A stretch of 64,000 nucleotides of DNA from an uncultured Gemmatimonadaceae bacterium (GCA_963781585.1 CAWAGQ010000011.1:96001-160000), one strand, 5' to 3'. Shown: positions 17,117 to 17,792, counted from the stretch's first letter. A program made the numbers and translations. The notes: a model not told the origin generated them from the sequence alone.

Positions 17117-17286
17117 GTCCACAATCTGTAGTCGCCGAGGCGGGTCACGTCCATACGGCCGCTGCGAGTTGGAGGCAGCGGCTGGATCGCTCGGCGGCCC
17201 GGGTGCTCTGTGTCCTCCGCGCCCTCCGTGGTCAAGACAGATCTGCTGTTGGAATCGCAGAGAGCGCAGAGTAGCTGTGTTGAAAG

Positions 17287-17526
17287 TCAAGGGAGAATTG
17301 CGACGGGCGGACGCCACGCCGCGTGGGTTTTCACCATGGCATTGAGGGTCGTGAGGAGCCGACGCATACACGCCGTCAGGGCGACCTTCACCGGCTTGCC
17401 CGCCGCGCGGAGCTGGCGATACCACGGCCGCAGCACGGGATTGCAGCGACTGGCCGTGAGCGCAGCCATGTACAGCACCGCCCGCACGTGGCGTCGGCCG
17501 CCCCAGCAGCGGCGCCGGCCGCGCTG
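17287..17526 (-). pseudogene. IS110 transposase C-terminal fragment
   Basis: [63 protein letters not shown]; the RuvC-like domain and the SG serine loop are absent. Confidence 0.9.
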
Positions 17527-17527
17527 C

Positions 17528-17660
17528 GGGCTCCCGGAGGCCCCGGTAGCTGTGCGGGCTTCGAGCGATCGCTGCGGCGGCGCTCCTACTCTGCGACGGG
17601 CTCTCGACACCCCGGACACTAGGATCGAGCTGCCGCCGTCCCGAACCAACACTCCTTAAT
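17528..17660 (-). ncRNA. Bridge RNA, 3'-truncated (target-binding loop plus 5' half of donor-binding loop)
   Basis: Stem 17638-17627/17585-17575 encloses an internal loop carrying AGTGTCC and GCAGAG (reverse complement of core plus right target). CACAGCTAC at 17554-17546 is identical to the element's right-end donor half. Confidence 0.75.
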
Positions 17661-17792
17661 GAAGACATACAAGGTCACGGAGAGGGCGCCGCCGGTAGAT
17701 CACGCGGCTGCCAGGTTTTCGAAGGTGCTTGTTGTCGCTGCTTCTCCGTGGTTGAACAAGGTCCCCTTGTTCACATCACGAGGACCTGCGAC

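Follow-up and report, generated by a model that had tools for sequence, protein, structure and literature searches.

Organization of the locus

The window, by which we mean the whole 64,000-nucleotide stretch of DNA analysed, carries at positions 17270–17673 on the minus strand a 404-bp, non-autonomous, internal-deletion derivative of a bridge-RNA insertion sequence of the IS110 group and IS621 type. This mini-element is flanked by an ogt-like gene upstream (PF01035, E = 2.2e-33) and a 958-aa ORF downstream (14243–17116), for which no Pfam family was found at E ≤ 0.001; all three lie on the minus strand. Aligned to the full-length relative that we describe below and refer to as the parent, the mini-element consists of parent positions 1–149 (88.6% identity) joined to parent positions 893–1147 (95.3% identity). 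Its features, all on the minus strand, are as follows.

17270–17673, minus: whole mini-element, 404 bp including the CT core at both ends, from the parent alignment
17672–17673, minus: CT core, left copy, bordered on its outer side by the left target CCGTGAC (17674–17680)
17653–17665, minus: predicted 5′ hairpin of the bridge RNA, UCUUC AUU AAGGA, mini-element positions 9–21
17575–17640, minus: complete target-binding loop (TBL), from the consensus structure and covariance-model alignment
17525–17566, minus: donor-binding loop (DBL), 5′ half only, ending at the deletion (mini-element position 149)
17524–17525, minus: deletion junction, parent 149 joined to parent 893, 743 bp missing
17290–17523, minus: last 78 recombinase codons (234–311), matching PF02371 positions 54–86 (E = 4.5e-5)
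17287–17289, minus: recombinase stop codon, directly after codon 311
17270–17290, minus: right end, with a −35-like TTGACT (17285–17290), the left donor ACACAGCTA and the CT core
17203–17755, minus: 553-bp block missing from a second genome of the genus, comprising a 149-bp CTCYGYG repeat cluster that holds the target, and the mini-element

Read along the minus strand, the sequence is CCGTGAC-CT-TGTAT (17680–17667) at the left junction and ACAGCTA-CT-CTGCG (17278–17265) at the right; both are where a first-pass annotation, made from this DNA alone, had placed them. Within the TBL, an outer stem with a bulged A encloses the left-target guide UAGUGUC+C (mini-element positions 53–60), an inner hairpin, and the right-target guide CGCAGAG (79–85), which is followed by UAG at the position of the IS621 handshake guide. 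The DBL remnant comprises the 5′ strand of the outer stem, the left-donor guide CACAGCUAC (120–128) and an inner hairpin, GGGC...GCCC; its 3′ half, with the right-donor guide and the closing strand, is missing, so the bridge RNA is incomplete. The segments that had been picked out earlier as guides, AGTGTCC, CGCAGAGTAG and CACAGCTAC, are all present in the left end at those places, and the reported match of GTGTCC to a sister repeat holds, with its reverse complement GGACAC lying in the right flank at about 17213–17208, within gcggaggacacagag.

Comparison with the parent agrees with the earlier reading that the right-donor guide (TTGCAAG in the parent, at about positions 152–158), the RuvC-like DEDD domain and the catalytic Ser are deleted. 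The 743-bp deletion also took the start codon, and its right breakpoint falls three codons after Ser230 of the DSG motif. Retained are nucleotides 1–149 of the left end, codons 234–311 with their stop, and the 17-nt right end. The two breakpoints have only CGC in common and no long shared word. The C-terminal coding remnant that the annotation described is therefore present, but it amounts to 78 full codons plus the stop rather than 79 codons. As only codons 234–311 are left of the recombinase, the mini-element is not an autonomous insertion sequence; it encodes neither a recombinase nor a complete bridge RNA, in line with its earlier description as non-autonomous. The deletion fuses a GTG-started frame in the left end to the last 78 codons, giving a 121-aa ORF (17287–17652, minus strand), which we take as chance, one frame in three.

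Full-length copies in the host genome

The host genome (G000) is an assembly of 17 contigs and 5.7 Mb that is 93.5% complete and 7.2% contaminated. Searching it with the 404-bp query returned, besides the mini-element itself, three further loci, each of which matches query bases 1–149 at 89% and bases 143–404 at 95%, the two matching segments being separated by about 740 bp. These loci are full-length copies of 1147 bp, identical base for base, which we call A-type.

C11:433051–434197: full-length A-type copy
C11:174941–176087: full-length A-type copy
C7:211297–212443: full-length A-type copy

The A-type recombinase has 311 aa, with matches to PF01548 (DEDD_Tnp_IS110, E = 8.5e-27) and PF02371 (Transposase_20, E = 2.8e-17), and over residues 2–299 it matches ISCro4 (PDB 9t56, 1.3e-35) and IS621 (PDB 8wt6, 9.3e-35). 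It contains the motifs GIDVS, EATS and TDRLDA, together with a DSG that aligns to the ESG of ISCro4; by homology these would be the equivalents of D11, E60, D102, D105 and S241 of IS621. The N-terminal DEDD RuvC-like domain and C-terminal Tnp domain with its catalytic Ser are those of the IS110 group, as is the layout of the ends: a left end of 194 nt, a right end of 17 nt after the stop codon, a lack of terminal inverted repeats, and integration at an invariant CT core without other duplication. All 4 insertions in the genome (three A-type and the mini-element) have the form LT-CT|TGTAT...CT-RT. The A-type parent is thus a new member of the IS110 group, and the best protein relatives that we found share 61% amino-acid identity with it. 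A genome search for full-length relatives, as suggested in the first-pass annotation, thus yields three 1147-bp elements, which belong to a sister lineage and have the same ends as the mini-element.

Evidence for a bridge RNA in the left end

The left end of the parent was compared across 79 loci that encode proteins related to that of the parent (44–61% identity), with element ends defined from multiple copies inside one genome. Related elements start with CT|TGTAT and end with TTGACN + 13 nt + CT. We could assign the two ends in 43 of 80 loci, a tally that is little guide to the generality of this pattern, which was itself used to locate the right ends; after a truncated locus (L110) was dropped, the remaining 42 were grouped by left-end sequence into 21 clusters, referred to here as families, and one left end per cluster was aligned. 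In this alignment a pair of stem-loops emerges, both with a large internal loop and the first with a bulged A in its stem. Of 26 pairs proposed by RNAalifold, 15 show compensatory changes. With a hand-set structure on the trimmed alignment, 94.3% of cells were paired, versus 36–47% when the 3′ partners were slid by 1–3 columns; 16 of its 25 pairs showed compensatory changes, and none of 500 shuffles reached any of five measures.

The guides also covary with the sites of their own elements. The right-target 7-mer (CT and five bases of the right flank, reverse-complemented) occurs in the left end of its own family in 15 of 21 cases, compared with 8 of 408 cross-family pairings, and the left-donor 7-mer (the last six left-donor bases plus C) in 13 of 21, compared with 0 of 266. 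An exact 7-mer is a weak test for the left target (own 3/21, cross-family 9/404). When the search was restricted to the loops, mean fits to own and to other families' sites were 6.24 versus 4.56 of 8 for the left-target guide, 6.62 versus 4.23 of 7 for the right-target guide and 7.57 versus 6.24 of 8 for the left-donor guide, each with 0 of 5000 permutations as extreme, counts that are not probabilities because the 21 families are kin to each other. Two covarying stem-loops and guides that track their own sites across 21 families thus identify the left end of the parent, at the level of sequence, as a predicted bridge RNA. The UAG that follows the right-target guide pairs with the left-donor tip, and such an extension runs from 3 nt to 1 nt according to family.

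A covariance model built with the mini-element left out recovered the mini-element at 49.6 bits (E = 5.9e-9 in the window) alongside the three parents, which scored 93 bits, with nothing else at E ≤ 1 across G000. A match at 37662–37761 (minus strand; 15.6 bits, E = 0.055) falls within a coding signal-peptide region and was rejected as noise. Rfam 15, searched over 16500–18500 at E ≤ 1, gave no family. Single-sequence folding of the parent and mini-element left ends was no better than for shuffles (z = −0.18 and 0.13); minimum-energy folds pair the guide loops, and we therefore relied on the alignment-based structure. Taken with the protein domains, the matches to known structures and the recurrent geometry of the putative circle-junction promoter described below, the covarying two-loop RNA and its guides support the IS621 bridge-recombination architecture that the first-pass annotation had recognized.

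Target sites and guide fit

The three A-type copies lie at tcgcgac-CT-ctgtg, ctgcggc-CT-ctgcg and ctgtgtc-CT-ctgcg, and the mini-element at ccgtgac-CT-ctgcg. All four sites are junctions between two CTCYGYG repeat units. Counting both strands, G000 contains 683 copies of CTCTGCG and 189 of CTCTGTG. CTCYGYG clusters occur in both orientations, for example at 17203–17269, 17674–17755 and C12:10500–10610.

On the three A-type sites, the A-type left guide UCGUGGC fits at 7, 6 and 5 of 7 positions, with G-U pairs counted. The same guide, read by hand, fits the site of the mini-element at 7/7 (five Watson–Crick and two G-U pairs), and the right-target guide that the two types share also fits there at 7/7. 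The left guide of the mini-element itself, UAGUGUC, fits its own site at 5/7 and that of the C7 copy at 6/7, again read by hand. The fit is thus criss-crossed: the site of the C7 copy favours the mini-element guide (6/7 versus 5/7) and the site of the mini-element favours the A-type guide (7/7 versus 5/7). Across the genome, 1527 CT sites fit the right-target guide; for the A-type left guide, 3 of these reach 8/8 and 52 reach 7/8.

The only other genome of the same genus, G001, is 64% complete. In it the ogt-like gene and the 958-aa ORF abut (L117, G001:C9, ~1500), and the 553-bp block listed above is missing. No target-site duplication is visible at the edges of the block, and AACCACGGAG and GACCACGGAG lie near its two ends. 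We considered whether the 149-bp cluster is itself a multi-copy unit and rejected this, as G000 holds only one partial paralogue, on contig C12; that paralogue carries an empty site, ctccgtgac-CT-ccgcg.

Descent from a sister lineage

Relative to the A-type copies, the mini-element has 17 differences in the 149 positions of the left end and 12 in the 255 of the right part. No left-end difference breaks a stem of the TBL or the DBL. Two of them, at positions 17 and 19, weaken the stem of the 5′ hairpin, in which the pair 11–19 is U11-A19 in the parent, U11-G19 in the mini-element and C11-G19 in a remnant from G001; three lie in the region of the left-target guide and another three in the first hairpin's apical loop. 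The parental pair T134-A143 has become C134-G143, a compensatory double change, and at position 99 a C-C mismatch has become C-G, which adds a pair in the mini-element. Among the 78 retained codons, 8 changed synonymously versus 2 non-synonymously. The sparing of stems and the synonymous excess indicate that this divergence built up under selection on both RNA and protein, in a functional sister lineage. These comparisons show that the mini-element is not derived from the resident A-type copies and descends from that sister lineage, which we call B-type.

No full-length B-type element was found in G000, in 60 relatives (including three unpublished genomes, G008, G034 and G035) or, by exact word, in two public collections. 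Among the 60 relatives, the only close copy of the mini-element was the remnant in G001, a 47-bp B-type left end (L023, G001:C14, ~1501–1547) in which the two diagnostic bases of the mini-element are present. This remnant is fused directly to the right flank at a CT(C) inside the left end, GGCAG-CT-CGATC; the junction could be the product of an aberrant recombinase event at a pseudo-core or of a plain microhomology deletion. The remnant lies within a repeat array orthologous to the C7 locus, and a neighbouring repeat unit there (about L023 1670–1690) carries an empty site, ctctgtgtc-CT-ccgcgg.

Copy number and expression

The mini-element occurs once in G000, rather than in the multiple copies that would mark a MITE or a mobilized element; no identical 404-bp copy was found in the genome. 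The word spanning its deletion junction had 0 exact matches in public genome contigs and metagenome contigs, and the B-type target-loop word had 0 in the same two collections, searches from which one-base variants would escape. Two genomes with seven full-length related copies each (G061 and G062) contained no two-ended mini-element; G062 has one decayed fragment with a right end only. No RNA run was listed as holding the locus, and only one DNA run was, from a public soil metagenome (0.39 of words). Its contigs contain no joint, empty site or circle, and 17529–17859 is uncovered. One contig of the run (16966–17301) spans the right junction of the mini-element; another leaves the mini-element at 17528 and continues as A-type, and none crosses the deletion junction.

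A circle, if formed, would join ACAGCTACT to TGTATG; this word had 0 matches in the G000 assembly. Read directly from the sequence, TTGACT would then stand 17 bp from TATGTC across the junction (13 nt + CT + TG), just as the first-pass annotation had it. As a putative circle-junction promoter, TTGACT-17-TATGTC has a −10 that matches TATAAT at only 3 of 6 positions. TTGACN + 13 + CT is present in 47 of 80 related loci, a count biased by the use of this same pattern to find the right ends. In its integrated state the mini-element yielded no sigma70-like site.

Several of the further-reaching proposals made for this element from its sequence found no counterpart in these searches. It had been thought movable in trans, and we saw no sign of past movement, with one copy in the genome and 0 public matches to its junction. 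Circle junctions and empty-site alleles of the mini-element, sought in the assembly and in the contigs of the one DNA run, did not appear, and a stand-alone expression of its target loop gained no promoter of sigma70 type in the integrated state. The idea of a new bridge-recombinase specificity stands only in the routine sense that every IS110 lineage has its own guide.

Origin of the mini-element and its possible mobility

The identity and anatomy of the mini-element, its ancestry and the integrity of its cis sites are established by the sequence comparisons above. We consider it very probable that it is a gutted copy of a sister-lineage IS110 element, a passive relic today that could be mobilized in trans by the A-type recombinase and bridge RNA. 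For the order of events we infer that a full-length B-type ancestor inserted at the CT between two CTCYGYG units and that the 743-bp deletion, which most likely arose in place, would then have removed the right-donor guide, the ribosome-binding region, the DEDD domain and the catalytic Ser. The present-day element is most likely inert, yet by analogy with IS621 it would be a competent substrate in trans. Its cis sites are intact: the donor half-sites ACAGCTA-CT and CT-TGTAT do not differ from their A-type counterparts and should therefore be readable by the A-type donor loop, the flanks pair with both A-type target guides, and the two halves of the putative circle-junction promoter are kept. 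The resident A-type recombinase and bridge RNA might excise the mini-element and re-insert it in trans. Judging from the IS621 literature, a role as a substrate in trans is plausible, and one as a donor of a target loop in trans is conceivable. For IS621, a donor of 22 bp is enough when the RNA is provided in trans, in the experiments described by Durrant 2024 (PMC11208160); excision is reported to rely on the donor arms alone (Xie et al. 2026), and integrated IS621 loci are reported to express bridge RNA weakly (Hiraizumi et al. 2026). Against competence in trans, elements with truncated recombinases were inactive in one assay (bioRxiv 10.64898/2026.08.14.744561).

Alternatively, the deletion may have arisen elsewhere or in a circle, with the A-type machinery then placing a 404-bp element, already shortened, at this locus. 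As the right-donor guide is deleted, any move in the short form needs the RNA of another element, and the mini-element sits in an unusually good A-type site, as expected if A-type RNA placed it: the A-type left guide outscores the element's own there, the shared right guide fits in full, and few sites in the genome fit as well. The 22-bp IS621 donor, which works with RNA in trans, speaks for the same scenario, and for ISPpu9 a minicircle deletion followed by integration is put forward in the cited part of one study (PMC12288879). However, there is one copy only across everything searched, and the preference in site fit is a weak pointer, with a likelihood ratio that we estimate at only about 2, because the two guides differ at 2 of 7 positions and the A-type copies, which occupy sites of 7, 6 and 5 of 7, tolerate mismatches there. 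We therefore regard mobilization in the short form as possible but doubtful, and keep to a deletion in place. An artefact, in which a full-length element lost its middle in assembly, we think highly unlikely. The fragmentation and contamination of the 17-contig assembly leave some room for it, as does the lack of any public contig across the deletion junction, with one contig quitting at 17528 into A-type sequence; but the breakpoints share no long word able to collapse a graph, the mini-element differs from A-type on both sides of the junction and so is no chimera of A-type copies, and the run contig 16966–17301 crosses the right junction.

A more active role is improbable in our view, namely that the bridge RNA is split and the mini-element has retained a functional stand-alone TBL that acts with the resident recombinase and donor loop. 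Its left guide, UAGUGUC rather than UCGUGGC, would then steer the residents to a second class of repeat site, and the effect might be to widen the resident target range or, by competition, to act as a brake; the loop would be transcribed either from the element's own putative circle-junction promoter or by transcription running on from the ogt-like gene upstream. The TBL has kept all its parts and a sound structure, with a left guide unlike that of the residents, and in the IS621 work the two loops of the synapse come from two RNA molecules, with separate TBL and DBL molecules supporting recombination in vitro (Hiraizumi 2024, PMC11208158). The C7 A-type copy, whose site fits the mini-element guide better than its own, makes the criss-cross a would-be footprint of such steering, but full-length B-type copies that have since disappeared would account for that fit equally well. 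The integrated state offered no promoter-like site, and we found no conservation that shows selection on the mini-element, whose locus is absent from G001, the only other congener. A passive relic that may be movable in trans accordingly stays our preferred reading.

Comparison with known systems

Like the parent, IS621 and ISCro4 combine DEDD and Tnp domains with an S-G catalytic motif, although the protein match is only about 1e-35. IS621 and the parent also share a long left end, a short right end, a CT core and the right donor TGTAT, and their targets lie in short extragenic repeats; the left donor of IS621 is ACAGTAT. In both, target and donor loops are present, with left guides in top-strand sense and right guides complementary, as described for IS621 in the cited parts of Durrant 2024 (PMC11208160), where the pairings include the core. 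According to the same study, circle formation in IS621 brings a right-end −35 together with a left-end −10, and the putative promoter halves of the parent and the mini-element would be joined in like manner. The 2–3 nt next to the right-target guide that pair with the donor tip here correspond to the IS621 handshake guide at bridge-RNA positions 81–82, whereas the right-target guide has 7 nt here and 4 paired nucleotides in IS621 (PMC11208158). Unlike in IS621, insertion here is targeted to a junction of CTCYGYG repeats, the host genome is Gemmatimonadaceae-like, and the element in the window is gutted, without recombinase or right-donor guide.

The locus offers a cleanly annotated natural bridge-RNA system beyond the usual model hosts, in a Gemmatimonadaceae-like soil bacterium, comprising a recombinase, guide loops, donor ends, a repeat-junction target and a sister remnant that differs at two guide positions. 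The A-type copies and the mini-element together could provide a small natural experiment on mismatch tolerance of the left-target guide, and could serve to test in the cell the trans action of a TBL alone, so far seen only in vitro, with IS621. Bridge RNAs of the IS110 family have been catalogued in the thousands. This lineage may already figure in the large supplementary IS110 catalogues of Durrant 2024.

The novelty of the mini-element is modest, as a MITE-like derivative of an IS110-family element with a truncated tnp, ssr9 of ISPpu9 in Pseudomonas putida KT2440, has already been published (PMC12288879). As described there, ssr9 resembles the mini-element in being an IS110-family derivative with IS-end-like flanks, one copy of which is linked to a truncated tnp fragment, and its authors propose an origin by minicircle deletion, with transposase acting in trans, and call it "MITE-like". 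The two also differ: ssr9 forms a distinct small-RNA module, located downstream of tnp and equipped with repeated end boxes of its own, and it occurs in several copies and has been observed as minicircles (PMC12288879), whereas the mini-element is a single copy with no circle evidence, a simple internal deletion that keeps half of a bridge RNA. In a limited search of the literature on bridge RNA, IS110 and non-autonomous elements, we found no deletion derivative that keeps only the target loop, although one may exist. Also comparable are natural compact IS110 elements of about 800 bp without a 5′ untranslated region (bioRxiv 10.64898/2026.08.14.744561), which, like the mini-element, have one component missing. 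As reported in the cited part of that study, they keep the recombinase without the RNA and are thus the converse of the mini-element; compact one-component elements of this kind imply complementation in trans.
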